A stretch of DNA of 64,000 nt from a virus, in IMG/VR virus record IMGVR_UViG_3300014613_000020, positions 34,980-98,979 of that record; one strand, 5' to 3'. The notes beneath the pieces were generated by a model. It saw only the letters and a list, made by a program, of their open reading frames with translations, searched no databases and was not told the origin of the DNA. Position numbers and translations under genes: made by a program. This document shows positions 1,733 through 57,176 of the stretch, in pieces; the first letter of the stretch is position 1, and every line of letters begins with the position of its first letter.

Positions 1733-2880
1733 TGCCGATCAGACTGATTGACCCGGATTACGAACCGGAGGAGACTCAATTCGAGTCCTACGTTGATGGG
1801 AAGTATCCCGTCAGTGGACTAACATTTTTTACAAAGGATGATAGTGGCAATTCGATATTTGTGGCACAGTCAGGCAATAGGATGGTTGCCAGGTATCGGA
1901 CTGTGCTGGAGGATGGGGGTGACGGCCCGCCTGGGTCGGTTGACAGGGGTGAGGTTCCATTGCTGGTGAGAGCGTTTGGCGGGGATGTGTCAGAACTTCC
2001 ACCATACAATCAGCCAAATCGTAGGTTATCTGTAGCAGAGACACTGATAAATGATTCAGAGAAGGTCATTATCGTTAATGTATCCAATGGATGGATAAAT
2101 AGTGTTCCTGGGATGCAGGTGAAGCCAGACTATTACCGGTTCAAATATGGCCGCATTATGACCAACAATCAGCTCGGGGAACCAAGCTGGATCACAGGTC
2201 AATATGGGCCATTTGCTATTGTAGCCATGGATATTGTGGGGGATGCGCAGGGCAACCCTTCCTCATTTGACCAGGTAAGGGTACGCAGTTTCTTAAACTA
2301 TCCATTATCTGTAGTTGATGGGGAATTGACGTGGGATGTTACCAAGTCCGGTTCCTACACAGCATCCTCATGGCGATTCTCAGAGTTTGCACGTAAACTG
2401 TGTGGTCATGAGTTTTTCAGTGTCTCGTTTGAGGATGAGTCAAATGTGATGCCTGAATTACATGATCTTGCAGTTGCAAATGGTTCTGTATACATGGGTA
2501 TCATTGAAAAGGACAAGAAAGGCAGGTCTGTTCTGAATCTCGGTTCACTGCAACCAGTGGGGGGTTCCTTCGACTTGATGGGAACTGAAGTCGAGGAGGA
2601 AGAGGTTGAGATGGAGTCTGACGCAGTTCAAGAGCTATACAAGGTTATCGAGAAATTATGTCCTACTAAGGCTTTTGCACAAAATGGAAAATTGACATCA
2701 GAGGCAGTGGAGTGGTGGAAAACTCTACCTGGAGATGATCCATCAGATGGAGAGTTGATTGTAGGAATCAGTGCATTGTGCAAGAAACATGATATACCTC
2801 ACAAATTTGCAGATATGGATGCTACGCACGTGAGCATTATCATTCAGTGGATGGAGGGTAGCGGAAATGACGAATTCTGA
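1732..2880 (+). CDS. hypothetical replication protein, possibly SSB or annealing protein
   Basis: 382 aa, acidic linker and C-terminal NDEF, located in the replication module. Function is inferred. Confidence 0.5.
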   Translation: MPIRLIDPDYEPEETQFESYVDGKYPVSGLTFFTKDDSGNSIFVAQSGNRMVARYRTVLEDGGDGPPGSVDRGEVPLLVRAFGGDVSELPPYNQPNRRLSVAETLINDSEKVIIVNVSNGWINSVPGMQVKPDYYRFKYGRIMTNNQLGEPSWITGQYGPFAIVAMDIVGDAQGNPSSFDQVRVRSFLNYPLSVVDGELTWDVTKSGSYTASSWRFSEFARKLCGHEFFSVSFEDESNVMPELHDLAVANGSVYMGIIEKDKKGRSVLNLGSLQPVGGSFDLMGTEVEEEEVEMESDAVQELYKVIEKLCPTKAFAQNGKLTSEAVEWWKTLPGDDPSDGELIVGISALCKKHDIPHKFADMDATHVSIIIQWMEGSGNDEF

Positions 2881-3028
2881 CATTAACAAAGTTAACACTG
2901 AATTGGAGACAATATTTTTGACGGATAACGATCTGTTAGGGTTTGACAAGATGTTTGACGATTTCTGGCCTTACTTGGTAGAGGACTATCTGGCTGAGGA
3001 AGATGTCGATAACGACAACGATTTTTAA
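2867..3028 (+). CDS. 53-aa highly acidic protein ending DNDNDF (below the ORF-track cutoff)
   Basis: ATG at 2867, TAA at 3026-3028; fills the gap between neighbours with short overlaps. Confidence 0.5.
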   Translation: MTNSDINKVNTELETIFLTDNDLLGFDKMFDDFWPYLVEDYLAEEDVDNDNDF

Positions 3029-3380
3029 TCGTAATGTCGTTGACGGAGCCAAACTAGGTGAGACCCACGGACTAGGTAGTTTTTATCAATATGATGATGA
3101 CCCACTCTCTACGCATTATGTCTATCCTGAATGGTACAATACGGAAAAGAAAGTTACTTCTTGGTCACTCGCTAAATGGTTATTGGAGGTTCATCAGCGT
3201 AGGGGGTGGGTCCCCTATTTCTCGGATAGAATAAATATGCGGCACGCGTCACCTCTTCTCAGGCAGTATGATGTTGCTACATTGATACGAGCTATACACT
3301 TCGCATCACAAGTTGCCACTAGACCTTTCTCATTCAAGCTGGTGAAAAAATGCCTCTCAGAAAAGTTCCTCGGCGAGTAG
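3003..3380 (+). CDS. hypothetical protein
   Basis: ORF upstream of and overlapping the primase gene. Confidence 0.55.
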   Translation: MSITTTIFNRNVVDGAKLGETHGLGSFYQYDDDPLSTHYVYPEWYNTEKKVTSWSLAKWLLEVHQRRGWVPYFSDRINMRHASPLLRQYDVATLIRAIHFASQVATRPFSFKLVKKCLSEKFLGE

Positions 3381-4306
3381 ATGTAGCCAAGGTAAAACAA
3401 GAAACTAATATAGCAGATGTCATAGGGTCTGTGGTGTCACTGAGCAAGGCGGGTGGACTGCTAAAAGGACTTTGCCCATTCCATCAGGAAAAGAATGCGA
3501 GTTTCACAGTGTACACAGATAGTTTTTTCTGCTTCTCGTGCAGAGAATCTGGGGATTTACTCAGTTTTGTGCAAAAGTTTTATAAACTTGATTTTCCTCA
3601 GGCATTGGAATGGCTGGCACAGAGGCAGGGAACTTTTGAACCTGCTCCTGTCGTAAGGCACGAGCATTCAAATCCCGTGCCGGTCATTCCAGAACTTGTT
3701 ACCTATTACAATTCCATGTTAAGGGATGAACATCGTGAATACTTCCACAGTCGCCTATTCAAGGATGAAACTATTGACAGAGAAGGATGGGGGTGGTCGG
3801 GAACCAGATTCTCAATACCTGTATGGGCAGGTAGACCGCAGGAAAGTGAATGCCTTGGGATAAGGCTTAGAAAGAAGGACGGAGATGGCGGACCGAAGTA
3901 TATTGGGATTCGGGGCAGCAATGATACTGCTCTTTACAATTCTTGGTCTCTCTATGGGGAAAAAGGAGCTTTTGTCCACTTCGGGGAGTTCGACTCGCAA
4001 CTGTGCTGTCAGGATGGGTTACCATCTGTTAGTCCTGTCAATGGCTGCGGCAGTTGGGATACTTCTTGGAATGAGCATTTCGTAGACAAAGAAGGAATTA
4101 TTATCATCCCAGACGTAGGGGAAGAGAAGTTCGGGCACAGATTGGCTGACATACTGGGCACAACTAGATGTCGCGTGTTGAATCTATCCAATGGATGGCC
4201 TGGAAAAGACTATAACGAGGGGCGAATGAATGGAGCCAAGCCCAAAGATTTGTTGAATCTGTTAGTTGATCAATATTCTCAAGTGGCAGTTGAATTTGAC
4301 TTTTAG
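3350..4306 (+). CDS. dnaG: DNA primase (CHC2 zinc finger plus TOPRIM-like domain)
   Basis: GLCPFHQEK...FFCFSC zinc finger; GEFD and IIIPD acidic motifs. Confidence 0.88.
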   Translation: MPLRKVPRRVDVAKVKQETNIADVIGSVVSLSKAGGLLKGLCPFHQEKNASFTVYTDSFFCFSCRESGDLLSFVQKFYKLDFPQALEWLAQRQGTFEPAPVVRHEHSNPVPVIPELVTYYNSMLRDEHREYFHSRLFKDETIDREGWGWSGTRFSIPVWAGRPQESECLGIRLRKKDGDGGPKYIGIRGSNDTALYNSWSLYGEKGAFVHFGEFDSQLCCQDGLPSVSPVNGCGSWDTSWNEHFVDKEGIIIIPDVGEEKFGHRLADILGTTRCRVLNLSNGWPGKDYNEGRMNGAKPKDLLNLLVDQYSQVAVEFDF

Positions 4307-4317
4307 GAGAGGCTATA

Positions 4318-4659
4318 ATGAGGAAAGTAAGCAATTTTAAGTTAGATAAAATTCCAGTATGGAAGATTGTTTTTGTTGTAACAACTTCTCCCTATTATGA
4401 GATGCACCGAATTTTGTTAATTGAGGATTGGCCTAATAGGGATGAGTTTACTCTAGTTGAGGGGTATCACCAATCTTTGTGCGGTTTTGATGATACCAAA
4501 TGGGAAGCTATGGTTTATACTTGTAACGAATTAAAACGATTGGTTATTGGCTGGGGTCGTGGCCCTTTTGAAATTGAACAAAAGGCGAAACCATTGATTT
4601 TACAATATTTGGAAAATGATTATGATTTGGTAGCAGAACGTGAAATGCTGGATAGATGA
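4318..4659 (+). CDS. hypothetical protein
   Basis: AGGAG RBS; AT-richer ORF between primase and helicase. Confidence 0.6.
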   Translation: MRKVSNFKLDKIPVWKIVFVVTTSPYYEMHRILLIEDWPNRDEFTLVEGYHQSLCGFDDTKWEAMVYTCNELKRLVIGWGRGPFEIEQKAKPLILQYLENDYDLVAEREMLDR

Positions 4660-6116: not shown

Positions 6117-6147
6117 CTTTTGCACAAAAGAAAGGAGATGTAGATAA

Positions 6148-7438
6148 ATGGCGAATAGGCTAGGGCCTTATGAAGTAAACAGCATTATAAATGGGCATGT
6201 CATGGATGTTTTAAGAGAATTGCCTGATGAATCAATCCACTGCTGTGTAACTTCTCCGCCATACTGACTGGGGCCTGAGAGATTATTCTATTCCTCCAGT
6301 AATATGGCCTGATGGTATAGTGTCTTCTCTGGGCCTTGAACCGACGCCCGATCTTTTCGTGGCGCACCTGGTCGAGGTGTTCAGGGAGGTGAGGAGGGTT
6401 TTGCGGGGGGATGGTACTGTGTTTCTTAACATTGGGGATTCGTATGCTGGACATCATGGCAATAGCAAGGTCCCGGATGATGATGCTCCTAGCAACAAGC
6501 CTGGCTATTGGGAGAATATGCGACCTACAAGTATCGGCAATGGCCTTAAGCCCAAAGACCTCGTGCTAATACCCGAACGCTTGGCAATTGCCCTTCAAGA
6601 GGACGGATGATGGATACGTAGTAGAATCATCTGGGCAAAAGGGGTTTCGTTCGGCACACACAATACCGAGTGTCCTCGCTGCGGCCACAAGCACAAGGCC
6701 ACCTATTCAGGATCGTGTATGCCAGGCTCACAACAGGACAGGCCGACGACATCCTACGAGCATGTGTGGATGCTTAGTAAGAGCGCGAGATACTACTATG
6801 ATGGGGATGCAGTGAGGGAGCCACACCGAGAAGCGAGCCTCAAACGATGGCATGGGGAGCTTAAGCCGTCCACACAATCTAGGAACAGGGAAGGCATATA
6901 TCCTCAAGACGGCATTAACACTCTACACAAGATAAAAGCCGGTGATATTCTCAACCCAGCAGGCCGCACCCTACGCTCCGTCTGGCTCATAAACCCCCAA
7001 CCTCTGAGGGAAGCACACTTCGCAACCTATCCGCCCGACCTGGTAGAGCCGATGATCAAGGCGGGGACAAGCGAACGTGGGTGCTGCACTGAGTGTGGAA
7101 ATCCCTGGAAGAGGGTGATAGAGAGAAAGGTTATCAATCGTGATGATTGGGGGCCATCAAATCCAAAACATGCTACCCCGCAAGGTATTCATGGGCCTTC
7201 TATGAGGAATGAGGGTAGATGTGGAGATTCATTGAGTGCCACCATTGGCTGGCAACCCACCTGTACCTGTGGCGGTGATACAGAACCAGCTATCGTCCTC
7301 GATCCATTCATGGGCGCTGGCACAACAGCACTCGTAGCTAAACGGCTTGGGCGTAACTTTTTGGGCATTGAACTCAACCCGGAGTATATTAAAATAGCGG
7401 AGAATCGCATTTGTGTTGTGCAACCTGTTCTGTTCTAA
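6148..7438 (+). pseudogene. N6A/N4C DNA methyltransferase interrupted by a TGA plus 4-nt frameshift at 6265-6268 and an in-frame TGA at 6608-6610
   Basis: ATG 6148 ...CCVTSPPY*; the shifted frame gives WGLRDY...ALQEDG*WIRSRIIWAK...HFATYP...LDPFMGAGTT. The pieces join into one classical MTase. Confidence 0.85.
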
Positions 7439-7458
7439 CTTTTGTGCAAAAGCAGTAT

Positions 7459-7487
7459 TTGACTTTTGGGCAAGTCTGTGATATAAT
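7459..7487 (+). promoter_or_regulatory. sigma70-type promoter for the polymerase (probably leaderless, ATG 7495)
   Basis: TTGACT-17 bp-TATAAT. Confidence 0.8.
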
Positions 7488-7494
7488 GGGGGGT

Positions 7495-9216
7495 ATGGTG
7501 ATACATCGGAATGAGTTTCCAACAGAAGTTCCGCATGTGGTAGGAATAGACATAGAGACTACGTCAAATATGGGCCAATTGTCGCGATTGCACCTTGACG
7601 ACATAGCATTGGTGCAGATTGCCTGTGGTGATGATGTCTACGTGATTGACGACATTCGTCCTTTTGCACAAAAGTTAGAGTCGCTTTTAGCGGACGTTGA
7701 AACAGTGAAAGTATTCCACAACGCTGTGTTTGACCTGGGGTTCTTGAGCATAGCGTTGGGGAGTCCGATTATCAATAACGTGTTCGACACCATGCTTGCT
7801 GAGCGGGTGCTGACCAATGGGACGGGGTTGGAATGCTCACTGAAGGCTGTTGCTGATAGGTATTTGCAGGTTCACTTGGACAAAGGTTTGCAAACGTCGT
7901 TTGGCAGTTATTCCTTTACGGATGATCAGATAGAGTACGCTGCCAAGGACGCGCAAGTCCTGCCTGCTATCAGAGATATGCAGATGGCTAAACTCAGAGA
8001 GAACGGTTTGATGAAGGTGATGCAACTAGAGAATGACCTAGCGCCTATCGTAGCAGGCATGGAAGTTGCGGGGATGGGATTTGACGGCGACAGATGGAAA
8101 ATTCTATCGGATAGTTTGCTAAGGGAGAGTCAGGAAGTGAACAACAGGATTCAGTCAAACCTTGGGTTGGAACACACGATGACTGACTTCTTCGGTAATA
8201 TATCGGGAATCAACCTTAACTCGCGTGATCAGGTATTGTCACAATTAAAAAAGATTGGGATAGACCTTCCTGATTACAGAGATCAAACACTAAAGTCATA
8301 CGCGGCAAAGCATCCGGAATGCACAGTTCTTCAGGACATTATAGACTACAGGCACGCGACGAAGGCGCTATCATTCGCATACCACGACTACGTCAATCCG
8401 GTGACAGGCAGGATACACGCGAAGTTTACACAGCTGGGTTCACGCGCTGGTCGGTTCTCGTCGTCGGACCCAAACCTGCAACAAGTTCCGGCGCAAAAGC
8501 GATTTAGAGACTGTTTTGTTGCCAATGATGGCAAGTTACTGGTAACGGCTGATTACAGCCAACAGGAGATGCGTCTCATGGCGCAGGCATCTGGCGATGA
8601 GAACCTTATAAACGTGTGCACGGCGAGTGACATACATGCAGAAAACGCACGAGTGATGTACAAGGATGATTCAATCGACAAGAACGACAAAAGGCGTATG
8701 ATTGCCAAAAACGCTGGATTTGCGTGGCTGTATGGTAGCGGGCCTGAGACAATGGCGGTGACAGCGGGAATATCGGTAAGTGACGCGAGAGACGTGTTGG
8801 CAAAGCTGTCGGCATCCTATCCGATGGTTGACAAGTGGGCCAAACGGCAGTTAAAACAATTATATGAGAAAGGTTACATAGAAACCCTTCTAGGGCGCAG
8901 GAGATGGCTTGTGGGCGCGAAAGGAAGCGATGAGATAGTAAAGTATGCACGTATTGCTAAGAACACTCCCATCCAAGGCAGTGGCGCTGACATCATCAAA
9001 TATGCCCTTGTCGAGATAGGAACCATGCTGCGTGGCTATGCACAGATAATCTCAACAATCCACGATGAGATAATAGTAGAAGTGGATGAAGACGATGCCG
9101 AATCTGTGAAGGATTGCATAATACAATGCATGGAATATGCCGGTGAGAAGTTGATAGACCGAGTACCTGTGGTAGTAGAAGCAGGAATGGCAAAAGAATG
9201 GTCGAAAGGAGAGTAG
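7495..9216 (+). CDS. polA: DNA polymerase family A with 3'-5' exonuclease
   Basis: GIDIET, FHNAVFDL, YAAKDA, GRFSSSDPNLQQVP, ADYSQQEMR, AKNAGFAWLYG, NTPIQGSGAD, TIHDE. Confidence 0.95.
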   Translation: MVIHRNEFPTEVPHVVGIDIETTSNMGQLSRLHLDDIALVQIACGDDVYVIDDIRPFAQKLESLLADVETVKVFHNAVFDLGFLSIALGSPIINNVFDTMLAERVLTNGTGLECSLKAVADRYLQVHLDKGLQTSFGSYSFTDDQIEYAAKDAQVLPAIRDMQMAKLRENGLMKVMQLENDLAPIVAGMEVAGMGFDGDRWKILSDSLLRESQEVNNRIQSNLGLEHTMTDFFGNISGINLNSRDQVLSQLKKIGIDLPDYRDQTLKSYAAKHPECTVLQDIIDYRHATKALSFAYHDYVNPVTGRIHAKFTQLGSRAGRFSSSDPNLQQVPAQKRFRDCFVANDGKLLVTADYSQQEMRLMAQASGDENLINVCTASDIHAENARVMYKDDSIDKNDKRRMIAKNAGFAWLYGSGPETMAVTAGISVSDARDVLAKLSASYPMVDKWAKRQLKQLYEKGYIETLLGRRRWLVGAKGSDEIVKYARIAKNTPIQGSGADIIKYALVEIGTMLRGYAQIISTIHDEIIVEVDEDDAESVKDCIIQCMEYAGEKLIDRVPVVVEAGMAKEWSKGE

Positions 9217-13544: not shown

Positions 13545-14284
13545 CAGACATGTTAGGACCATACCAATTGAATACCATCGTCACAGGTGACGCGAGAGAG
13601 TTGTCAAAGGCAATTCCTGATGAGTCTGTCGATTTGATATTCACCGATCCACCATGGGGGGTGGAGTATAAATATCCTAGTGAGTTTGTAGATTCATGGG
13701 AAGGATATAAGGATTTTGTGGAATGGCTTGTAGGAGAATGCCAACGAATTCTGAGACCCGGTGCGTTTGCTTTTGTCTATCAAGGAACAAAGCGTTTGCA
13801 AGATACGTATTCAATATTCCCAAGTGGGAGTCGTTTATTTGCCGATTGCAAAACTTTTATCCAACTCAAGGGACTTCCGGTTGAATTCGCTGTAGACTAT
13901 ATTGTGTTTTGGCAAAAATTGGGCCTGTTTGCGCTTACTGGTATGTGTAGGGATTGGCATAGAGCGAATACGTCTAGGACAATCCACAAGAGTCGTGATA
14001 CAAAATTGTGGTTGACAAATGGGGCAAAGATACCACCACCACGACCTCTAGAGAGCTGTGTTTATATTATAAATCAAATGTGCTTACAAGGTGCTATAGT
14101 TATGGATTTTTTTGTTGGGAGTGGTACAACTGCTGTAGCATGTAAGGTATTAGGTCGTAACTATCTGGCCTTTGAGATAGATCCTGAAACTGCTGAGATT
14201 GCCCGTCAACGAGTAGTACAGACACAACCACCTCTTTTTGTACAAAAACAGGAACAATTATCATTGAATATTGGAGATGAATGA
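13541..14284 (+). CDS. DNA methyltransferase (DPPW)
   Basis: DLIFTDPPW and MDFFVGSGTT. Confidence 0.9.
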   Translation: MTDMLGPYQLNTIVTGDARELSKAIPDESVDLIFTDPPWGVEYKYPSEFVDSWEGYKDFVEWLVGECQRILRPGAFAFVYQGTKRLQDTYSIFPSGSRLFADCKTFIQLKGLPVEFAVDYIVFWQKLGLFALTGMCRDWHRANTSRTIHKSRDTKLWLTNGAKIPPPRPLESCVYIINQMCLQGAIVMDFFVGSGTTAVACKVLGRNYLAFEIDPETAEIARQRVVQTQPPLFVQKQEQLSLNIGDE

Positions 14285-15557: not shown

Positions 15558-17113
15558 TGGGAATAAAAATTTATGGGCCGCACATACAGGATATAACTGA
15601 ATATGATTACATGGTGGGGTGGGTGAAGGACAATCGACCAAAGATCGTTAAGGACATGGAAGACAATTCCGAGTTTATCAAAGCGTGTCAGGAGTATGTG
15701 GGCTTTTGGTTGTACCGGGCATTCACGGAAGATCAGTCTGTGGAGAATCCAGCAAAGGCTGCACAGAGACATTACGACAGATTGATGAATAAGGCGGCTG
15801 TTCAATACATGCGCGATTCTGGCATTTACTTTGCCTGCGAGGGGTTTAATGAGATAAACACAGGTCATGGTCAAGACTTTAACAAACTTTGCGCAATGGA
15901 TGTTGAGCTTGCACGATTGCTAAAAAGAGAAGGAATATTGTACTGTGCCGGCAGTGTAGGGGTAGGGCATCCAGCACTACACTATAAGGATTACTGGCCT
16001 ATTGACATAAATGATCCTAGTCTCTCACCAGAAGATAGGGCAAGAGCGGTTCCATTGCATAAATATGAGCCGTTTCTGGAAGTCCTGTCGGTAGTTTTTG
16101 CCTATGGAATTCATGAATACTTCGCACCGCGGATGGACGATGTGCGGAACCTTGACCTAGGTGAACCCGGAACGGGATGGTGGCTGCAACGCTACAGAAA
16201 GTGGTATCCCAAATTGGCTGCTCAATATAAGGTTCACCTTATTATATCCGAGACGTGCATAGACTCGGGTGCACCACACTTCTGGCCTGGTGCTCAGGGT
16301 GGGTGGCAGTCGTTTGGTTCTGAGAACATGGATCTAAAAATACAGGATACGATAGCACAGTTAGAAGTATATGGTGCTGAGTTAATATCAGATGGTGTGT
16401 TCGGCGCTACTCCTTTTTTGTGGGGGACAAAGGATAAGCACAACTGGGGGTCGTTTGACTGGTTGGAACCAAGGGGAGCGAGTGAAGCGTTTGGTGTGTT
16501 GGTAAAGGATGGCATACTCGTGGAAGAACCTGAATTTGATTGGATTGACATTCGTGATACCATTCAAGTGCATGAGAACTATCCTTATGGCAAAGAAAAG
16601 ACAGATGAGTTTTTGTACAAAAGCAGAAAACTAACAGATATAGATACAGTTATTTTTCATCATACAGGTTGGAAACCGGTTGGTCCTGATCCTATAGCGC
16701 GTTATCATGTTGAAGATTTAGGATGGCCTGGACCTGGATATACTTTTCTAATAACACCTGATGGTAAGAAATATTACATGAATGACCTTACTATTGCTAC
16801 GTTTCATGCTAAGCAATACAATATGAAATCTATAGCAATAGCAATAGAAGGCAATTTTATGAATGGAAATAGGCCAACAGATGCACAGATGGTATCAGCT
16901 ACTAAGCTATTAAAGGACTTGCGTACACATTTTCAGTATAGTCGAGTTGTAGGCCATAAGGAACTATTGCCTACTGATTGCCCTGGTGACGGTTGGTCTG
17001 TGTTAGAACTACTGTCTGACGAAGAGGATTGGAAAAAACGAGCATTGATGGCAGAGGCAATGAACACAGAGTATGAGGAATTGATCGCAGACGTACATCA
17101 AATGACGGGATGA
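15557..17113 (+). CDS. endolysin: glycoside-hydrolase-like N-terminal domain plus Amidase_2 N-acetylmuramoyl-L-alanine amidase
   Basis: IFHHT, GWPGPGYTF, FHAK..N..SIAI, VVGHKEL..TDCPG; N-terminal FNE / HEY / ISE pattern. Confidence 0.85.
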   Translation: MGIKIYGPHIQDITEYDYMVGWVKDNRPKIVKDMEDNSEFIKACQEYVGFWLYRAFTEDQSVENPAKAAQRHYDRLMNKAAVQYMRDSGIYFACEGFNEINTGHGQDFNKLCAMDVELARLLKREGILYCAGSVGVGHPALHYKDYWPIDINDPSLSPEDRARAVPLHKYEPFLEVLSVVFAYGIHEYFAPRMDDVRNLDLGEPGTGWWLQRYRKWYPKLAAQYKVHLIISETCIDSGAPHFWPGAQGGWQSFGSENMDLKIQDTIAQLEVYGAELISDGVFGATPFLWGTKDKHNWGSFDWLEPRGASEAFGVLVKDGILVEEPEFDWIDIRDTIQVHENYPYGKEKTDEFLYKSRKLTDIDTVIFHHTGWKPVGPDPIARYHVEDLGWPGPGYTFLITPDGKKYYMNDLTIATFHAKQYNMKSIAIAIEGNFMNGNRPTDAQMVSATKLLKDLRTHFQYSRVVGHKELLPTDCPGDGWSVLELLSDEEDWKKRALMAEAMNTEYEELIADVHQMTG

Positions 17114-17117: not shown

Positions 17118-17486
17118 ATGTTTGACCCTGTTGAGATGAATGTACAGATGATGAAAAAGGATCAAGAATGGGTTTGGTGTGAGAGATTACGCTACCATCT
17201 GCTGATGACCAGGCGATATTGCGATAGATGTGGGAAAATTCTCATCGGTGCTGAGGTGCATGAGGGGATTGTGACACGACAGGATGTGAGAGGATGGAAA
17301 TATCCTGACAAGGGAAGGATATTTAGCGAATACAATTCTATGCTCCTGTGCCCCGACTGCCACCGTCCCAGTCCACCTAGTAGGACAGAATGTTGGACAG
17401 TTTTATGCAAAAGATATGGAGAGGAGGTGGTAAAGAAGTGGTATTTTGATTTGCCTTGGAGAATTGGACCACCTAGATACTTTTAA
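17118..17486 (+). CDS. Zn-binding HNH/NinG-like protein
   Basis: CDRC...H...N..LLCPDCH. Confidence 0.55.
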   Translation: MFDPVEMNVQMMKKDQEWVWCERLRYHLLMTRRYCDRCGKILIGAEVHEGIVTRQDVRGWKYPDKGRIFSEYNSMLLCPDCHRPSPPSRTECWTVLCKRYGEEVVKKWYFDLPWRIGPPRYF

Positions 17487-19143: not shown

Positions 19144-19169
19144 TTTTGTACAAAAGTTAGGAGGCGAAC

Positions 19170-22129: not shown

Positions 22130-22156
22130 TGGGTTTTGTACAAAAGGAAGGAAGGA

Positions 22157-26345: not shown

Positions 26346-27335
26346 ATGAACATAGTCTTTCGAGTAATAGCCAACAACCAAGTAGGCACAGGGCATGTGC
26401 ACAGAGCCCTAACATTAGCAAACGTTTTTGCACAAAACAACAAGGTGTCGTTTGCTTGTCTTGAAGATGATATTCAGTTGGTTCAAGAGATTGTAGGATC
26501 ACGATTCCATATCTTGACTGTACCGCCACAAATTGATGTTGGGTATGCTAGAACCATAGGTGCTGATCTGTTAATCAATGACATGCTTGACACAGACGCA
26601 GAAACCTTAAAGAGAGTCAAAGGTTCTGGTATAAAAGTGGTCAACTTCGAGGATTTGGGCAGTGGCGCTATAGAGAGTGATTTGACTATCAACGCACTTT
26701 ATCAATCTCCACAATTTGAAGGAGGAAACGTGTTGTGGGGGATTGACTACTATTTACTGAGAGATGAGTTTTTGGCTGTGCAACCAAGGCGATTCTCACA
26801 GGTAGTCGAGACTGTGCTGATTACATTTGGCGGTACAGACCCGACAAACTTGACACAAAAGACGCTAGAAGTAGTGGGACCCTTGTGCAGGGATGCGGGA
26901 CTTAATCTATATGTCGTGGTAGGGCCTGGGTATAGCCACCACGAACAGCTAGAAACGTGGATTCGCGGATTCAATTATGGTAAACTCATGCACTTCAGGC
27001 AGACCGGTTACATGGCGAGTTTAATGAGCAACGCCGACTTCGCGTTTACTTCTAATGGTCGGACGGTGTATGAGTTATTGCACATGAATGTACCATCTGT
27101 GGTGATAGCACATCACGAGCGGGAGAACACTCATGATTTTGCTCATGTGCAAACAGGGTTTATGAATTTGGGGGTTTATAAACATGGTTACACTGAGGAA
27201 TGGATAGGCGCGGAGTTTGATGCGTTATTATCAAGAACTGACCATCGCTATATGCTATTCAGGAACATGATGGATTACGATTTGACCCCTAACAGACAGA
27301 GAGTAGTACAGAAGATTATGGAGGCGACAGAGTGA
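26346..27335 (+). CDS. SpsG/PseG-like GT-B fold protein (nucleotide-sugar hydrolase or transferase)
   Basis: VGTGHVHRALTLA, LRDEF, LITFGGTDP, GRTVYE. Confidence 0.85.
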   Translation: MNIVFRVIANNQVGTGHVHRALTLANVFAQNNKVSFACLEDDIQLVQEIVGSRFHILTVPPQIDVGYARTIGADLLINDMLDTDAETLKRVKGSGIKVVNFEDLGSGAIESDLTINALYQSPQFEGGNVLWGIDYYLLRDEFLAVQPRRFSQVVETVLITFGGTDPTNLTQKTLEVVGPLCRDAGLNLYVVVGPGYSHHEQLETWIRGFNYGKLMHFRQTGYMASLMSNADFAFTSNGRTVYELLHMNVPSVVIAHHERENTHDFAHVQTGFMNLGVYKHGYTEEWIGAEFDALLSRTDHRYMLFRNMMDYDLTPNRQRVVQKIMEATE

Positions 27336-30578: not shown

Positions 30579-31644
30579 TAGACTAGCACAGATGCACCAA
30601 CGAGAATATGCCGTATTGACAACCAGCGGAACTACGGCATTGGTATTGAGTATGTGGGCATTGGGCCTCGCAAACAAACGAATAGCCATTCCTAACAACG
30701 TGTGTTACAGTGTTCCTTTGGCTGTGTATTTATCAGGCAACGAGCCGGTGTGGGTGGATATAGACAAGAAGAACATGAGGATGAACCTGAAGGACTTGTG
30801 GTTGGAGTGTCATGCTGGTGAATGCGATGCTGTGATAGCGGTTCACAGTTATGGCATTCCATGTGACATTATCAATATAGCTGCCTTTTGTGCAAAAGAG
30901 AACATCCCACTGATAGAAGACTGTGCTGTGGCATTGGGTGCTGGGGATGTTGGTCACTACGGGGATGTGTCAATACTGAGTTTCGGTGAAGGGAAGATTA
31001 TCAACAATGGCGGTGATGGGGCTATCCTAACTGATGACTATGATTTGGCTAAAAGTGTAGGAGTTTTGCAATATGCTCTGCCCATGAGTGACAGGAGTCT
31101 TCATCAGAATACCCAGCGTTTGAGCAACGTCCATACACATCTCTACAACAGCTATTACTGGGATGATTGGTGCAAGATATTTGTATTTGGTGCTGCGGCC
31201 TTGAGATGCCCTTACGATTTTTTGAGTGTGCAAGACCACTTTGGGTTGGATTATTTAAGCCTCGAGAAGAAGCTAGACAACTTGGACAGGAATGTAGAGT
31301 CGAGATGGAACAAGTGGAAGGAGTTGGATGGCCTGCTAGGTGGCTACACCACTCAAATATCTGATAATATTGGTGTCGATTGGAGATACAACTTCCTGGT
31401 AGAACCCGAGCATCAGCAACTACTTCTAAAACGACTACACAAGAAGGGATTCAAGGCAAGCAGTTGGCATCCGCCCAGTGACATATTCTGGCAGGAACGA
31501 TCTAGGGATGATTCAACGCCCACGCCAAATGCTGACTGGGTGGGTGACAGGATTATCAACCTATGGGTGGATGATAGTGTGGATGATGAGTATATTATAG
31601 GTGTGAGTGATGAAGTGAGGAGGTTCTTAGATGAGCAAGTATAG
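30565..31644 (+). CDS. second DegT-family sugar aminotransferase
   Basis: SGTTAL, AVHSYG, LIEDCA, LSFGEGKII. Confidence 0.88.
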   Translation: MLLPDRLAQMHQREYAVLTTSGTTALVLSMWALGLANKRIAIPNNVCYSVPLAVYLSGNEPVWVDIDKKNMRMNLKDLWLECHAGECDAVIAVHSYGIPCDIINIAAFCAKENIPLIEDCAVALGAGDVGHYGDVSILSFGEGKIINNGGDGAILTDDYDLAKSVGVLQYALPMSDRSLHQNTQRLSNVHTHLYNSYYWDDWCKIFVFGAAALRCPYDFLSVQDHFGLDYLSLEKKLDNLDRNVESRWNKWKELDGLLGGYTTQISDNIGVDWRYNFLVEPEHQQLLLKRLHKKGFKASSWHPPSDIFWQERSRDDSTPTPNADWVGDRIINLWVDDSVDDEYIIGVSDEVRRFLDEQV

Positions 31645-31906: not shown

Positions 31907-32822
31907 TATAGAACGAGCAGAGTTAGGTGAAGAGTGGGACACTTTTGTGCAAAAGTCATCCAATGGAACTGTGTTCTCATATTCAGATTATCTTCATGCT
32001 GTCAACAGGCTAACGGATGTATGGTACGTGATGAAGGGGGAAGAGAAGAAGGCTGCAGTGTCATTGATGCTAACCAGTGATCTCAAAAACACAATGTTGA
32101 ATGACTTTGTGGTATACAATGGTCTAATGTTCACTGGGTCTGAGTCTAACAAGAACACGGCGCAGGCAAACGCGGAGAGATTCTCAATCACTGAGTTTGT
32201 GGCAGAGTGGCTACCAAGGGAATATAGGACGATTGAGATGCAACTCCATCCAAGCGTCATAGACATCAGGCCGTTTCTGTGGGTGAACTACCATGACAAA
32301 TGGGAAGATGGATACTATGCCGATATTAGGTACACTTCTATTCTGACAAATCCTACTTTGGAAGGAATGGGGAACTCAAGGCGCCAGGAGATAATGTATG
32401 GACTAAGAGATGCGATTGAGGTAGTTGAAGCAGAAGAGTCTGATCCCTATTACTTTGTTGATATGTATTGTAGAATGATGGGCTACAATGCTCGTTCAGA
32501 AACTGCTGATTATATGGTAAATGTTCTTCTATGCTTATTAGGATGTGATTTGGGTAGAATGTTCAAAGCGTATTTACTGACTGGGGAGATAGCAAGTATG
32601 TCAATGTTTGTCAAGGATAACAAACGTTCTTACTATCTATTCGGAGCCAATGAATCTGAGTTCAAAGACAGACACGCAGGTTCGCTATGTGTGTGGGAAG
32701 GAATACAAAGAATGGGTATGGAAGAGTGCGACATGGAAGGAATAAATAGTCCTAATAGAGGACACTTCAAAACGAGTTTTGGTGGCATCGTAGTCCCATA
32801 TTATCATCTTGTTTATAATTAG
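31893..32822 (+). CDS. GNAT/FemAB-like acyltransferase
   Basis: WDTFVQKS..GTVF, YYLFGAN, DMEGINSPNRGHFKTSFGG. Confidence 0.8.
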   Translation: MSKYSIERAELGEEWDTFVQKSSNGTVFSYSDYLHAVNRLTDVWYVMKGEEKKAAVSLMLTSDLKNTMLNDFVVYNGLMFTGSESNKNTAQANAERFSITEFVAEWLPREYRTIEMQLHPSVIDIRPFLWVNYHDKWEDGYYADIRYTSILTNPTLEGMGNSRRQEIMYGLRDAIEVVEAEESDPYYFVDMYCRMMGYNARSETADYMVNVLLCLLGCDLGRMFKAYLLTGEIASMSMFVKDNKRSYYLFGANESEFKDRHAGSLCVWEGIQRMGMEECDMEGINSPNRGHFKTSFGGIVVPYYHLVYN

Positions 32823-33039: not shown

Positions 33040-33891
33040 ATGGATAAAAAACTACCTGTTACAGTAATAGTGTGCACGCTAAACGAAGAGAAGTACATTG
33101 ACAGATGTCTGACGGCGATTGAGAATAACAGTCCATCTGAGATAATAGTGGTGGACGGCGGTTCCACTGACAGGACGGTGGAGATAGCGCGCAAACATAA
33201 CGCTATTGTCTTTTGCACAAAACCTGGGTTGGCGTCGCAGAGACAATTGGGGTTGGACAACGCCACTCAGTTTTATGTAATGTTTGTGGATGCTTTCCAT
33301 CTTCTTGCTCCCCTGATTCTAAACGCTCAGAACTTCTGTATAGAGACACTACTCTATGAGCTAAGCGCTGGTGGATATGATGCTTTACAGGCCAGAGAGT
33401 TTGACGGGTTACAGTGGAATGGTAGCTATTGGTCAAGGGGAAGAGCGTCGGCAAACAGAGCTATAACAATTCATGATTTTCCAAAAGAGACCAATATGGT
33501 AGGTCGCCCTGCGGTGTACAAGACATCAGCACTCAGAGTTCATGGGTTCGATTCCTACTTTGATGGGGTGGGTGATGAAGACACGGACTTGTCAATCAGA
33601 TTGTCTGCTGCTGGATGCAGGCAGGGCATCGGAACTGGTGTAGCGTGGCGGATGGATGATTTGACTTTTAGGCAACTTTGTGGTAAACTGAATAAGTACG
33701 GGCGCGGCGATGCCAGGATTATCAAAAAGTATCCTTGGAAGAAGTGGGAAATAATCTATCATCAGCTAGTCAGGTATCCAATAGTGCGTGGATTAAAGGC
33801 GGTTAGACGGGGTGATGGGAAGTATCTGCCTTACTACGTTTTGTGTGGATGGGTAAGGTTTATTGCCACATTGGGGGAGCTGTGGAGATAG
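33040..33891 (+). CDS. family 2 glycosyltransferase
   Basis: VIVCTLNEE, VVDGGSTDRT, FVDA, EDTDLSIR. Confidence 0.92.
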   Translation: MDKKLPVTVIVCTLNEEKYIDRCLTAIENNSPSEIIVVDGGSTDRTVEIARKHNAIVFCTKPGLASQRQLGLDNATQFYVMFVDAFHLLAPLILNAQNFCIETLLYELSAGGYDALQAREFDGLQWNGSYWSRGRASANRAITIHDFPKETNMVGRPAVYKTSALRVHGFDSYFDGVGDEDTDLSIRLSAAGCRQGIGTGVAWRMDDLTFRQLCGKLNKYGRGDARIIKKYPWKKWEIIYHQLVRYPIVRGLKAVRRGDGKYLPYYVLCGWVRFIATLGELWR

Positions 33892-36180: not shown

Positions 36181-36552
36181 GTGGAGTCTGACATAGTAAT
36201 TCTCTTGGCGTCGGTCATGCTAGGAGAAGCCGGAGTACTAGGGGAAGAAGCAATGCTTGCAGTAGGTCACGTGATAATGAATCGTGTGTCTAGCGACTTC
36301 TTCCCCAACACAGTCACGGAAGTGGTAGAACAGCCAAACCAATGGAATGGACGCACTATCCCACACGGATACGAAGAAGCACTGGCAAGGCAAGTTCTCA
36401 GACGTAACCACGACCCAACAAAAGGGATGCTGTACTCCTTAAGCGAGAACGACAGGCGGAAGCTAAAGTTCCCAATCGGCGATAAGATATATGAATGGAA
36501 AGTATTCAAGATTCACCTGTACAAGGAATGGCCTACTTTTGCACAAAAGTGA
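36181..36552 (+). CDS. SleB/Hydrolase_2 cell-wall hydrolase
   Basis: GEA...AVGHVIMNRV...FPNTVTEVV.QP.QW. Confidence 0.85.
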   Translation: MESDIVILLASVMLGEAGVLGEEAMLAVGHVIMNRVSSDFFPNTVTEVVEQPNQWNGRTIPHGYEEALARQVLRRNHDPTKGMLYSLSENDRRKLKFPIGDKIYEWKVFKIHLYKEWPTFAQK

Positions 36553-44654: not shown

Positions 44655-44718
44655 TTTACGCAGAATTTACGAACAGTTTTCTAAAATGCTTGACTTTTGA
44701 GTGAAGGTAGTGTATACT
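44655..44718 (+). promoter_or_regulatory. repeated phage promoter, class A (TTTACG-N5-TTTACG upstream of the -35)
   Basis: TTTACGcagaaTTTACG...TTGACT-17-TATACT. Confidence 0.85.
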
Positions 44719-44753
44719 TGTAGGTAGTTAAGAATGGGTGGAGGGGGAGAAAG

Positions 44754-46184: not shown

Positions 46185-46248
46185 TTTACGCAAAATTTAC
46201 GAACAGTTTCCTAAAATGCTTGACTTTTGTGCAAAAGTGTAGTATACT
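46185..46248 (+). promoter_or_regulatory. repeated phage promoter, class A, with TTTTGTGCAAAA in the spacer
   Basis: TTTACGcaaaaTTTACG...TTGACT-17-TATACT. Confidence 0.85.
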
Positions 46249-46560
46249 TAGTGGTGTAAGGGAATTAGCCACTAATGAAGGGGGAGAACAATGACAACAG
46301 CTTCAGTTTGCAAGGGATGTGGGAAGGATATGATTAAGGTGGGATGCTGGACCGGGGATTGCGTCGGTGACCCGTGCATGTACTACTCCTTGGTAGGGGG
46401 ATGGGGATGTTTCCGCCCCCGTACTCAATATTGTCGGGACGGACACAGTCCCATTTATGTTCCGGCAGACACGGTTAACAGTTATAGATTCAACAATATC
46501 AAGGGGGTGAGGAAGCGGGGACGTTTATCCCCACTATAGAGAGTTTGTATCTACGAAAGG

Positions 46561-50355: not shown

Positions 50356-50410
50356 TTTACGCAATCTTTACGTTAGAATCCTTGACTTTTGGATAAGTGT
50401 GGTGTATAAT
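50356..50410 (+). promoter_or_regulatory. repeated phage promoter, class A (shorter upstream spacing)
   Basis: TTTACGcaatcTTTACG...TTGACT-17-TATAAT. Confidence 0.8.
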
Positions 50411-50735
50411 CAGAGGTGCTATATATGTTATTGGAATTGCTAAAACGTTCTACAAACTACTACGACGACTTCTTGACACGCATCAGACCATACGTATCAG
50501 ACTATGCGTGGAACGACGCCCACAAAGGCGCTAGAGGGCACGCGGGAGGCATGGCGTCGCCAAAGAGACCTGTCCCCGTGTCCACACAGGAGAGGGTTAT
50601 TCTTAAATTGTGCTCTTCGGACGGGTCGTTCTTGGAGGAGTTGGACGATGGGGACATTGTCAAGCTGCACGACGCCTGCCATAGGCCTTTTGTGCAAAAG
50701 TCATTGCTAGAACTGCTAAATAAGGACTAAACCAC

Positions 50736-51181: not shown

Positions 51182-51246
51182 TTTACGTAGAATTTACGAC
51201 CAATCTTCTTAAACTCCTTTACTTTTGTGCAAAAGTAGTGTATAAT
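51182..51246 (+). promoter_or_regulatory. repeated phage promoter, class A, with TTTTGTGCAAAA in the spacer
   Basis: TTTACGtagaaTTTACG...TTTACT-17-TATAAT. Confidence 0.8.
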
Positions 51247-51279
51247 CCTAAGTGTAAGAGTTGATTCAAGGAGATTAGA

Positions 51280-51639
51280 ATGAAGGCAGTCTGGTCAATA
51301 AGTAGAAAGTCGCCGAGGGAACTGTCAGAGTGGCGTACGTCAAAGGCCACAGAGTTAGAAGAGAAGACAGGTGTGCCATGGTCAAACTGGGAAGCACACG
51401 GCAAGATAGTCTTCATGCCTTACCTGCACAAGGACGTGGTGGCTGATGCAGGGAATGCTGATTCCTTGCTTGAGGCGCTCGGCAAGGATTACAAGAACTT
51501 CCTCGTGTTGTCAGAGGAGTCCGGATTGAAGCTCACTGAGGTGATGGTGGCGGCATCGTATCTCATTAAAAGTGGTTTAGTAATTCCGACAGTTTGTCGG
51601 ATGGGTAAAGTAATAGCCATCAAGAGAATACAGAGGTAA
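51280..51639 (+). CDS. hypothetical protein
   Basis: AGGAG RBS after a class A promoter. Confidence 0.6.
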   Translation: MKAVWSISRKSPRELSEWRTSKATELEEKTGVPWSNWEAHGKIVFMPYLHKDVVADAGNADSLLEALGKDYKNFLVLSEESGLKLTEVMVAASYLIKSGLVIPTVCRMGKVIAIKRIQR

Positions 51640-52556: not shown

Positions 52557-52959
52557 CTTTTGCGCAAAAGTAATGTTGATGAGTTCGACATGTCACTAGA
52601 AAGGGTCGATAGAATGCCAAAGATTATACACTTTGATGAGTTTAGAATGCAGCGTGGTGTACCCAAAATCCCATTTGGTGAGGACCTTCACAGACTGCCT
52701 GGCCACACACGGGCAACGAAACGACGTGTCGACAGAGAAATGCTAAGACGATGTGAGGAGCACCGAATTCAAGTAGAAGAGCTTCACGCAGAGTATGATA
52801 GATTGATAGCCATTGGAGAGATTAAATCACCTACCCACAAAGAGAGAATACAGCACAATGCTGGAGGACTGCCTGAGAATGAATCAACTAAAGCTGCAAA
52901 GCGTGTTTTAGAAAGACGAAAATCGACTGTTGGAGAGTGATTAGAAAGGAATTACATCA

Positions 52960-53378: not shown

Positions 53379-54740
53379 ATGAATGAGAAGAGGAAAGTAC
53401 TACTCATACAGCCCAACCACTATCAGAGTTTTGAAAGCAAGTGGATTCCAACAAATTTGGTATACCTAGCGTCGACTCTGATATGGAGGGGATATGAGCC
53501 GATTTTGATAGATGACAGGTTTGATCGAAGTGAAACATTGTCCAGGATAGATTCCAATATTGATGACACGCTGCTAGTCGGAATATCCACAGTCACTGGG
53601 TCTCAATTGCGAAATGCGGTGGCTTTAGCAAAGCATATCAAACTGTGGTACAGCCTTGAAATTCCTATCGTATTTGGTGGGGCATTCCCATCGGCTAAAC
53701 CTGAATTGTGTACACAGTATTGTGATTATGTCATCCAAGGACAGGGAGAATATTCGCTTACTTATCTTTGTGACTTGATACGATTAGGGACACCACCTAA
53801 GACGCCAATTCTATCCCCAAAGCCGGTCAACATCTCTAATCTCCAACCACTGCCATATTTTAATGGGTTTATCAATGTGGCGGACTATCTGAATCCTGAG
53901 ACACTTGCCATCAACTATGCCACTGCAACAGGTTGTGTTGGAAGTTGCGGATTCTGCTATTGGCATGATTCATACAAGTACTCACGACTGCCTGTGGACA
54001 CAGTCCTGTTCGACCTTGGAATGATGAAAGCCATCTATGGCATTAGGAACATCAACTTTGACGATGGCACGTTCTTTGTCGGACGTGATAGAGTGATGGC
54101 GATAGCGGACGGCCTTAGCAAGCTGGACGTGCAATGGCGTGCTAATGCCAGAATAGACGCACTGAAGTCTTTTGCACAAAAGGACTGGAACAAGATAAGC
54201 GAGTCCGGATGCCATTTGATGCACATAGGCCTTGAACACGGGTCAAAGCGGATACTGGACATGATGAACAAGCGGATAGTCGCTGAAGATTGTTTTGACA
54301 TCATCGACAGAGCACGTCTAAGCGGTATCCAACTAAGGTTCCATATCCTATTAGGCAATCCGACAGAGACCGTCGCAGACCTGGAGAGAACCGGGCAGCT
54401 GTTAGCGCGGATGCTTGACAAGGATTCTGGGTTAGACTATACTGTAAACTTTTTTACTCCTTATCCTGGATGTACCATGACAGAGATAGCCAAGCAGCAC
54501 GGATACAAAGAACCTACGACGTTGGAAGGATTCATGGACTTGGAATTGGTCAATTATGTAAACCTGCCAACAAATGACAGGGAGATCATCAAAGAGACAT
54601 CTCCTTGGCGGGCCGATTACATAGTCCCTTGGTTCACAGACGAAGAGAACGAACGGTACATGGAAGTGTTCAGGCAAATAATACCTGAAGTCATAGACAT
54701 GCAAACCACGGATGGCAACATAGAGACTGTGTATTCCTGA
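53379..54740 (+). CDS. cobalamin-binding radical SAM enzyme
   Basis: N-terminal B12 domain (LVGIS, VFGGAFPS, GQGE), CVGSCGFC, FDDGTF, IGLEHGS, LGNPTET, TPYPG. Confidence 0.92.
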   Translation: MNEKRKVLLIQPNHYQSFESKWIPTNLVYLASTLIWRGYEPILIDDRFDRSETLSRIDSNIDDTLLVGISTVTGSQLRNAVALAKHIKLWYSLEIPIVFGGAFPSAKPELCTQYCDYVIQGQGEYSLTYLCDLIRLGTPPKTPILSPKPVNISNLQPLPYFNGFINVADYLNPETLAINYATATGCVGSCGFCYWHDSYKYSRLPVDTVLFDLGMMKAIYGIRNINFDDGTFFVGRDRVMAIADGLSKLDVQWRANARIDALKSFAQKDWNKISESGCHLMHIGLEHGSKRILDMMNKRIVAEDCFDIIDRARLSGIQLRFHILLGNPTETVADLERTGQLLARMLDKDSGLDYTVNFFTPYPGCTMTEIAKQHGYKEPTTLEGFMDLELVNYVNLPTNDREIIKETSPWRADYIVPWFTDEENERYMEVFRQIIPEVIDMQTTDGNIETVYS

Positions 54741-54742
54741 CA

Positions 54743-54806
54743 TTTACGTAGAATTTACGAACAGTTTTCTAAAATGCTTGACTTTTGCATAAAAGCAGTG
54801 TATAAT
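54743..54806 (+). promoter_or_regulatory. repeated phage promoter, class A
   Basis: TTTACGtagaaTTTACG...TTGACT-17-TATAAT. Confidence 0.85.
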
Positions 54807-55374
54807 TGTAGGTAGAGTTAATTACACGAAAGGAGAGAAAGATGGCAGTAGTCTACGGACTACGCACATGCCAATATTGCAAAGGGATTTGCCATGAGTC
54901 TTCTTGGCGTGATTCCTATCGGAAACGACATCAATACTGGTGTTGCAAGGAACATCTCATCCATCAAATAGAGTGGTTCCATGAGTGGCTTTTTGAACCT
55001 GTGCGGGTTGTCACACCGTAAACCACTAATGAAGGAAAGAGAGGGAAAGATGCTTGAGGAACTTTATAGGGCAATTGAAACAGATCCTGTTTCTTTTGTG
55101 ATTGGTGTGGCGATGAACGTGCTCATCTATTACATTGGCTATTTCTTTGGGAGAAGGGGCCGGGCCGATAAATGAAAGACTGTAAAGCATGTAATGGTAC
55201 AGGAATAGATAGTGACTTTGATCAGATGTGCGGCCAATGTGGTGGCACCGGATTAAAATCCCAGTCAGCATCAGAATGGTTTGATTATCCAGAATCTGAA
55301 CCTATAGACGCTCAGATATTGGATTTTGAGGAGTGGAGAGAATTGTATGGATGTGCAAGATAAAAGGAGAATGA

Positions 55375-56978: not shown

Positions 56979-56984
56979 CACGAT

Positions 56985-57071
56985 TTGACAAAACGTGGAA
57001 TATGTGCTATAATTAAGGATGGCAAGCCTAGAAGACTACTATTTGACAGAATCAACATTTTAGTGTATAAT
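56985..57071 (+). promoter_or_regulatory. two tandem consensus promoters upstream of the head operon (the second is class B)
   Basis: TTGACA-17-TATAAT at 56985-57013 and at 57043-57071. Confidence 0.85.
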
Positions 57072-57119
57072 GTAGGTAGGTTATTTTTCTCATAACTTAA
57101 TAGCCGATTTTGGGTAACT

Positions 57120-57154
57120 GGGCAGACCTTGGAACATCAAGGTCTGCCTTTTTT
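57120..57154 (+). terminator. intrinsic terminator-like hairpin in the head-operon leader
   Basis: GGCAGACCTT-loop-AAGGTCTGCC followed by a T-run. Confidence 0.7.
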
Positions 57155-57176
57155 GTTTTGCACAAAAGGAGGTGGT

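Follow-up and report, generated by a model that had tools for sequence, protein, structure and literature searches.

The 64,000-nucleotide stretch analysed here (the window) covers bases 34980-98979 of the IMG/VR record IMGVR_UViG_3300014613_000020, a 98,979-bp phage that was rated 100% complete by CheckV, and exact copies of one palindrome, TTTTGYRCAAAA, are scattered along it, 20 in the window and 28 in the whole record. Our results suggest that these 28 copies, which together with their flanks read aCTTTTGYRCAAAAGt (a dyad of 14-16 bp), are high-affinity sites for one dimeric, sequence-specific DNA-binding protein that serves phage transcription control, a reading to which we give a probability of roughly 0.55. 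The phage is uncultured; its DNA is present in groundwater metagenomes, and one groundwater RNA run contains part of it.

The first-pass annotation of the window had listed 20 positions for the palindrome and one-mismatch variants at 17401 and 54783; all 20 proved to be exact matches and both variants exist. In 100 dinucleotide-preserving shuffles of the window the word appeared 0.06 times on average and once at most, and the reversed control word was found nowhere in the record. Order-3 and order-5 Markov simulations of the genome gave 0.07-0.17 perfect copies, compared with the 28 observed. In the same simulations 1.1-2 one-mismatch copies were expected and three were found (window 17401, window 54783 and, outside the window, genome 29401), while the 16 two-mismatch copies stood at the background level (18-20 expected). 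The 10-mer core never occurred in the genome without the full 12-mer. A literature search for the palindrome word returned primers and Gateway sites only. Chance, codon bias and a repeated protein motif were ruled out by the shuffles, the Markov simulations and the synonymous-codon test described below.

The flanks continued the symmetry of the word: C stood at position -1 in 19 of the 28 copies, G at +1 in 23, A at -2 in 14 and T at +2 in 11. All 28 TTTTG-NN-CAAAA words of the genome had a pyrimidine-purine (YR) step at the centre, which was CA/TG in 22, TA in five and CG in one. On the sense strand CA and TG centres were found in a ratio of 14:8 (p=0.29), that is, there was no orientation bias, and asymmetric centres without strand preference indicate recognition of duplex DNA and not of a transcript. 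The hairpin that the palindrome can form was weak, -1.2 kcal/mol as RNA and -2.3 kcal/mol as DNA. The symmetric flanks, the interchangeable CA/TG centres and the weak hairpin argue against an RNA element, a cruciform or a terminator role; a stable RNA or DNA hairpin or a terminator was ruled out by these energies, and the only Rfam match in the window was a tRNA-His (22059-22129).

Twelve of the 20 window copies, and 14 of the 28 genome-wide, were in coding sequence and used all three frames, in line with the earlier estimate of about half; four lay within the last 40 nt of a gene. In a codon-aware test, every peptide of the open reading frame (ORF) set that is able to encode the word, in any frame, was listed. 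A lack of enrichment over the background was one of two conditions under which the first-pass annotation was to be refuted, and the finding survived this codon-aware test: the word was realised at 19 of the 22 encodable peptide positions, where codon usage predicted 1.2. All 12 F-[AV]-Q-[KN] positions and all five F-C-[TA]-K positions were realised, and of the three unrealised positions two were one-mismatch variants. We compared the in-gene copies with orthologues in the nearest sizeable relative read, IMGVR_UViG_3300017971_000228 (G001; 98,106 bp, 56.8% G+C, portal 56% identical), and in more distant contigs. The orthologues aligned without gaps and had other residues at these places (SFREG, EFVQS, FCADH, HLIKR, AFTPN), indicating that the in-gene copies were built by point substitution, with amino-acid changes as a cost, and not by insertion. 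A 12-bp (four-codon) mobile insertion was ruled out, since every in-gene copy with an orthologue aligned gap-free. Selection is thus strong at both the synonymous and the amino-acid level, and it acts on DNA, not on protein. The first-pass annotation had proposed a genome-wide site for a dimeric protein, which remained the best-supported reading given the symmetry, the lack of orientation bias, the weak hairpin and this selection on DNA; the organiser, self-mark and recombination roles that it had offered for such a site were not favoured.

The coding copies of the window are as follows. Copy 2673..2684 lies in a 382-aa ORF (1732-2880), is read A-F-A-Q-N and aligns gap-free to the L130/L131 orthologues (AFTPN/AFTPS). 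Copy 3565..3576 is read S-F-V-Q-K in the primase gene (3350-4306, primase PHROGs) and copy 7662..7673 is read P-F-A-Q-K in the gene for a family A DNA polymerase. The final codons of a methyltransferase gene hold copy 14236..14247, 33 nt upstream of the next start, and an amidase-domain gene (15557-17113) holds copy 16611..16622 in the frame F-L-Y-K. Copy 26426..26437 (V-F-A-Q-N) is in the 5' part of ORF 26346-27335, about 140 nt beyond the TnpB gene, and aligns to the G001 orthologue. Copies 30886..30897 (frame F-C-A-K, FCADH in G001), 31943..31954 (T-F-V-Q-K, EFVQS in G001) and 33211..33222 (frame F-C-T-K) are in ORFs 30565-31644, 31857-32822 (in its 5' part) and 33040-33891, respectively. 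Copy 36537..36548 is in the final codons of ORF 36181-36552, copy 50688..50699 is at the 3' end of ORF 50416-50730 with the next start 36 nt downstream, and copy 54170..54181 is read S-F-A-Q-K in a B12-binding radical SAM gene (SFREG in G001). It had also been noted that no copy falls in TnpB, homing-endonuclease or intron DNA, which is correct, but about 1.4 copies are expected there by density, so the observation is uninformative.

Copies outside coding sequence were placed at promoters and gene junctions. Ten promoters of the genome form one duplicated cassette family, made up of an upstream TTTACG (about 25 nt before the -35), an A/T-rich stretch, a -35 of TT[GT]ACT, a 17-nt spacer and a -10 of TATAAT or TATACT, several with a GTGTAAG box after the -10. 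The cassette regions are 1597-1710, 7434-7547, 44665-44778, 46195-46308, 50357-50470, 51193-51306 and 54753-54866 in the window and 7790-7903, 15217-15330 and 16828-16941 in L002. Five cassette promoters (genome 32242 and 33853; window 46220, 51218 and 54778, the last with one mismatch) carried the palindrome in the spacer with the dyad centre at about -24.5, and five sister promoters (genome 24815; window 1622, 7459, 44690 and 50382) had the left half-site only. The spacer placement that had been annotated for 46225, 51223 and the variant at 54783 was right: 46225-46236 is in the spacer of the sigma-A-type promoter 46220..46248 (+; TTGACT, 17 nt, TATACT), 51223-51234 in that of 51218..51246 (+; TTTACT, 17 nt, TATAAT) and 54783-54794 in that of 54778..54806 (+; TTGACT, 17 nt, TATAAT). 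Copy 7440..7451 follows a methyltransferase stop codon (7438), with the -35 of promoter 7459-7487 coming 8 nt later; the spacer of this promoter itself contains a degenerate palindrome copy. Promoters genome 32242 and 33853 have a common 5' untranslated leader. Three of the palindrome promoters are followed by small Cys-rich proteins, and the gene after promoter 32242 has a SWIM-zinc-finger-like predicted fold.

Fourteen of the 28 copies were non-coding or at junctions, though the non-coding fraction of the genome is small, and 17 of 28 were within 100 nt of a gene junction (9 expected, P=0.002, on a rough gene map). Five copies were found between a stop codon, or the tRNA-His, and a Shine-Dalgarno site: genome 26352 and the four window copies (6118, 19144, 22134 and 57156) that had already been said to abut a ribosome-binding site. 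Copy 6118..6129 follows the DnaB stop codon (6116) and precedes the Shine-Dalgarno site of the next ORF (ATG 6148); copy 19144..19155 likewise has a stop codon (19143) before it and the Shine-Dalgarno site of ORF 19170-19703 after it. Copy 22134..22145 begins 5 nt past the tRNA-His and abuts the Shine-Dalgarno site of ORF 22157-23236, and copy 57156..57167 lies between a terminator (57120..57155) and the Shine-Dalgarno site of a scaffold-like ORF (ATG 57177). At all five, the +1 G of the dyad is the first G of GGAGG. The one-mismatch variant TTTTaTGCAAAA (17401..17412) also adjoins a Shine-Dalgarno site. Copy 52558..52569, with a GCGC centre, comes directly after the prohead-protease stop codon (52556), is preceded by TTGAC and lies upstream of ORF 52614-52940. 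The placement in promoter spacers and the enrichment at junctions favour transcription control. As a separate observation, the Shine-Dalgarno site abutting genome copy 26352 leads into a four-codon mini-ORF, M-R-M-K-stop (genome 26364-26385; L002 9364-9385).

The junction copies could also be read as an mRNA signal for translation or processing; a translational repressor that binds RNA might recognise them, for example, or a small hairpin might cover the ribosome-binding site. The distance to the start codon is 7-18 nt for the five copies and the one variant that abut a Shine-Dalgarno site, and in two contexts the Shine-Dalgarno site folds onto upstream U-rich sequence (-5.5 and -7.6 kcal/mol). 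However, the flank symmetry and the interchangeable sense-strand centres are what is expected of duplex DNA, the hairpin alone is worth -1.2 kcal/mol, the spacer copies are upstream of the transcription start and so not in the mRNA of that promoter, and 14 copies lie well inside coding sequence or at its ends. We regard an mRNA signal as highly improbable.

The terminator next to copy 57156 deserves separate mention. It has a 13-bp stem of -20 kcal/mol on the + strand, its T-run enters the copy, and in a + strand scan of the whole genome it was the sole convincing intrinsic terminator. Two promoters that match the consensus at 12/12 positions (56985 and 57043) are upstream of it, and the copy and then the scaffold and capsid genes follow. 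The block 56985-57176 thus consists of two perfect-consensus promoters, a leader of about 75 nt and a terminator, all directly 5' of the scaffold and capsid genes; G001 has the same layout of promoter, leader hairpin and terminator at 25280-25420 (locus L125), but without the palindrome. The arrangement resembles an antitermination control of the late operon, in the manner of lambda Q/6S or put RNA.

We infer the binding by a protein, its repressing or road-blocking effect and the identity of the binder, and the proposed mechanism would be as follows. One subunit would recognise each ACTTTTG half-site, the centres of the two half-sites being about one helical turn apart, and the YR step at the dyad centre would be read indirectly, as a flexible step. 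Judged from its position, a protein bound in the 17-nt promoter spacer would block RNA polymerase, and the spacer copies would be classical repressing operators. The copies between stop codons and ribosome-binding sites and those within genes may act as road-blocks or as loading points and so modulate how far transcription reads from one gene module into the next, as stoperators do, in a nearly one-strand genome with one strong terminator detectable. The binder would probably be encoded by the phage.

A candidate for this protein is encoded at 51280..51639 on the + strand, the first gene after the palindrome promoter 51218 (119 aa, pI 9.3). It matched no Pfam family at E<=0.1, with stray matches only among 60 family members, and the best hit of a PDB profile search had an E-value of 0.49. 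Its neighbours in a protein language model were HTH_5/IclR/MarR winged-helix clusters (score 0.92). The candidate belongs to a family (P0122-P0192) of unannotated proteins of about 120-135 aa, which comprises 69 clusters at 50% identity in metagenomes and has no Pfam model. Its members have in common the N-terminal pattern MKTxWS...KTGVxW...AHGKxxFxP and, at the C-terminus, a winged helix whose RMGK wing is conserved. An AlphaFold2 model built from a 60-sequence alignment (pLDDT 96) consisted of an N-terminal beta-alpha-beta-beta domain and a winged helix (residues 56-119), with the three helices and beta-hairpin wing of that fold. Residues 56-119 matched the DNA-binding domains of MarR, ArsR, IclR, Fur and Z-alpha with Z of 8-9.4 (best: 63 residues, rmsd 2.7), while the Foldseek E-values were weak (>=3.6e-3), as is usual for a small fold. 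The candidate would bind ACTTTTGYRCAAAAGT-containing DNA, and since it is transcribed from a palindrome-bearing promoter, an arrangement typical of autoregulation, it could regulate itself from promoter 51218. It is a reasonable candidate, but its assignment as the palindrome-binding protein is doubtful. In addition, a weak MarR-like helix-turn-helix match (E=0.002, below the cut-off) was seen at 10569-10691 on the - strand. It falls in the antisense ORF of a homing endonuclease, by which a methyltransferase gene is interrupted, and probably represents the DNA-binding domain of this endonuclease.

Several results weigh against a dimeric regulator of transcription, or against this candidate as its gene. 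Half of the copies are far from recognisable promoters, so that more than repression of initiation must be involved. All ten cassette promoters, even those that have no right half, contain the left half-site ACTTTTG without variation, and the promoter-borne signal may partly be promoter sequence and not operator. In sequence, the candidate matches no DNA-binding family significantly, and winged helices are also found in proteins that do not bind DNA. G001 does not have the candidate gene, but about 90 other predicted ORFs are also absent from it, and this co-absence is weak evidence. Furthermore, the mismatch spectrum is near all-or-none, which is sharper than in the usual transcription-factor regulon and would also suit the target of an enzyme.

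Such an enzyme could be a nicking or cleaving endonuclease, a recombinase or a phage DNA methyltransferase, with the palindrome as a replication, recombination or self-marking signal. The all-or-none spectrum and the degenerate YR centre resemble restriction-type recognition, and the phage has at least three DNA methyltransferase genes, an HNH endonuclease and a RusA-like resolvase. We nevertheless think this very unlikely: the 12-16 specified bp far exceed known methyltransferase or restriction sites, the placement in promoter spacers and between stop codons and Shine-Dalgarno sites is left unexplained, and there was no pile-up of molecule ends in contig-level read data, which cannot reveal nicks. 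Moreover, the boundaries between genes common to G001 and genes absent from it were near 8 of the 17 junction-proximal copies against a baseline of 37%, without extra enrichment, so that a link to these boundaries was no more than junction proximity alone predicts. With this result, and with in-gene copies that are not insertions, the recombination hotspot of the first-pass annotation, or a cassette boundary, gained no support.

Anchors for a genome-organising protein (KorB/ParB-type clamps, Noc/NBS, SlmA/SBS or MatP/matS) were weighed as well. Here the array would serve compaction, positioning, protection or the coupling of replication to packaging, and transcription would be secondary. A palindrome of 14-16 bp is in the size class of parS, NBS and SBS sites, and the copies, one half of which are intragenic, are scattered along the entire genome. 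However, ParB_N (PF02195) had no match at E<=1 in a six-frame search of the phage, whereas control genomes did match; a regular spacing of the copies was not found, their coefficient of variation of 0.875 being close to the random 0.95; and the sites of a pure organiser would not be expected to be strongly enriched in promoter spacers and at junctions, even if an overlap with promoters is known for KorB operators. An organising role is therefore quite unlikely, and the same three points argue against the parS/matS-type organiser suggested at first.

The binding protein of the palindrome might belong to the host instead of the phage, which would then have copied the operator of a global regulator, such as one of stress, stationary phase or sporulation, and made its promoters and operon junctions responsive to the physiology of the host. 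A Bacillota-like host is suggested by several features of the sequence, namely strong ribosome-binding sites of the GGAGG type, promoters of the form TTGACA-17-TATAAT, of which several have a TRTG -16 motif, a SleB-type hydrolase and a portal that is about 45% identical to those of Tumebacillus and Alicyclobacillus prophages. Such a host has a rich set of dimeric regulators, and phi29 similarly uses host Spo0A boxes. In six-frame profile searches of the complete record Phage_integrase, Resolvase, HTH_3 (Cro/CI-type) and Sigma70_r2, like ParB_N, had no match, and no DNA-binding family was among the 25 listed of the 50 Pfam families matched (132 small ORFs). The absence of the motif from G001, whose G+C content is very different, fits a host switch. 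Against mimicry of a host operator stand the plausible winged-helix candidate of the phage itself and the 14 costly copies in coding sequence, which it does not readily explain; to our knowledge, no Bacillota regulator has this consensus (CodY, Fur, Rex, LexA and parS differ). We consider a host-protein site unlikely.

The record as a whole has a G+C content of 45.6% and a strong G>C skew, and nearly all of its genes are on the + strand. The recognised genes include those for the DnaB helicase, primase, family A DNA polymerase and sliding clamp, a Mu-type portal, an XkdF-type prohead protease, the B12-radical-SAM enzyme and TnpB. In GenBank no close phage was found, the best DNA polymerase match having 28% identity, and among GTDB genomes the host search returned no close TnpB relatives and no relatives of the candidate protein.

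The structural and glycan modules of G001 are syntenic with those of the phage. G001 had no copy of the palindrome and no other contiguous or spaced inverted-repeat (dyad) array, and the distant contigs L129-L132, found via the DNA polymerase, had no copy either. Two IMG/VR-wide scans (CTTTTGCACAAAAG and ACTTTTGTGCAAAAGT) returned no other dense array; the matches were single and at chance level, apart from one lake-phage family, where the word is inside a 132-bp tandem coding repeat. The second refutation condition of the first-pass annotation, conservation in related phages, was thus compared on a distant relative, G001, which does not have the motif. As far as G001 and the more distant contigs go, the array appears to be lineage-specific and not family-wide. 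No relatives of the candidate protein were found in IMG/VR. Closer relatives are present in the protein database, with a portal 83% identical and homologues of the candidate protein 77-81% identical (P0002, P0122 and P0123 among these relatives). Together with P0124 these relatives range from 63 to 83% identity, and residues 85-97, the recognition helix, differ among the homologues. A 588-bp piece from a groundwater run, with 18 differences, spans copies 7440 and 7662; none of the differences listed is at either copy, and the piece is not usable as evidence.

Two other repeats were observed in the course of the analysis. One is the over-represented word ATTATCA (often GATTATCAA/T), with 60 occurrences on the + strand, for example at window 2836, 4100, 5149, 7768 and 12500. 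Its form ATTATCAA was found 38 times on the + strand and 3 times on the - strand, with about 2 expected. The word used the three frames evenly (18/16/18) and was thinner between window 36000 and 60000. In G001 (loci L124-L128) ATTATCA was present 44 times on the + strand and not at all on the - strand, and GATTATCATTC 16 times. Because it is shared with a genome of 56.8% G+C, ATTATCA is a conserved polar signal of the phage group at the DNA or RNA level, unrelated to the palindrome; possibly it is a Chi-like, primase-related, pause or late-promoter element. The other repeat is in locus L131 (Ga0180008_1000321, a 44,786-bp metagenome contig with a DNA polymerase 40% identical), which has 14 copies of a repeat of more than 20 nt, GTTTCAGTATCCTCAGTCGGATC..., that may be a CRISPR-like or guide-RNA array.

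We know of no dispersed invariant palindrome in a lytic phage genome with an experimentally established function. The array described here is unusually legible: a subset of its copies is in consensus-promoter spacers, a subset at junctions of stop codons and ribosome-binding sites, one follows the sole strong terminator, and there is one concrete candidate for the binder. Knowing the binder and its effect on read-through would show how phages that are transcribed from one strand and are nearly free of terminators time expression without dedicated sigma factors or polymerases, and a compact operator/repressor pair would be gained. Should no binder exist, a motif as sharp as this would rather suggest the target of an enzyme. 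In its fullest form our proposal, which we think is improbable as a whole, would make the winged-helix family a genome-wide switchboard in a virulent-type phage, with the dyad shutting promoters from their spacers and gating read-through at junctions and within genes.

Dispersed operators of one protein are found in several known systems. In the KorB/OB system of the IncP plasmid RK2 and in Noc/NBS, a short palindrome is scattered on a replicon under one dimeric global repressor, with copies near promoters, far from them or in genes. The dispersed palindromic site and the 13-16 bp size range are similar to those met here, but those systems require a ParB-family protein, and the candidate here has a MarR/ArsR-like winged helix; because no ParB was found, a system of this family was excluded. 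The C1 repressor of phage P1 has many dispersed operators in a genome of about 94 kb, overlapping sigma-70 promoters of separate operons. As a prophage, the temperate P1 is a plasmid, and its C1 operators are asymmetric 17-bp sites, whereas the site here is symmetric and no lysogeny or partition functions were found in the phage.

The stoperators of Cluster A mycobacteriophages (L5 gp71 and relatives) are tens of near-identical dispersed repressor sites at promoters, in short intergenic gaps and within genes, which have been proposed to silence by blocking both initiation and elongation (PMC9283540; PMC6550527). This action matches the one proposed here for the junction and in-gene copies. However, the stoperator is described there as an asymmetric site of 13-14 bp that points in the direction of transcription and is recognised, in temperate phages, by an immunity repressor with two domains that binds as a monomer (PMC9283540). 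The sites here are symmetric and free of orientation, and the phage has no detectable integrase, partition system or Cro/CI-type repressor; the palindrome array is not a member of the stoperator system.

The closest published parallel is the 17-bp dyad repeat 5'-TGTTCGG-NNN-CCGAACA of the Cluster O mycobacteriophages, Corndog and its relatives (Cresawn et al., 2015; PMC4351075), and this kind of array is thus already known in phages. The 70-kb Corndog genome has 34 invariant and three one-mismatch copies, of which 14 are intergenic, 10 near 5' ends and 10 mid-gene, without orientation bias, and the authors inferred a dimeric binding protein that acts beyond the control of initiation (PMC4351075). 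Both arrays consist of tens of invariant dyad copies with few degenerate ones (34 + 3 in 70 kb and 28 + 3 in 99 kb), have a free dyad centre, no orientation bias and a predicted dimeric binder, and place roughly one third to one half of their copies between genes, some near 5' gene ends and the rest mid-gene; neither phage has an integrase or a sign of lysogeny. If true, the winged-helix switchboard would, through a previously undescribed protein family, offer a first approach to the mechanism of these Cluster O-type dyad arrays. The two arrays differ in sequence, which is unrelated, in host, Mycobacterium there and, going by its signals, a probably Bacillota-like one here, and in layout, 7+3+7 there and contiguous half-sites with a 2-bp YR centre here. 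The Cluster O array is cluster-wide, whereas ours is absent from G001, itself a distant relative. Finally, most of the Cluster O sites reportedly have no link to a promoter, while a subset of the copies here is found in sigma-A-type promoter spacers and at junctions of stop codons and Shine-Dalgarno sites.

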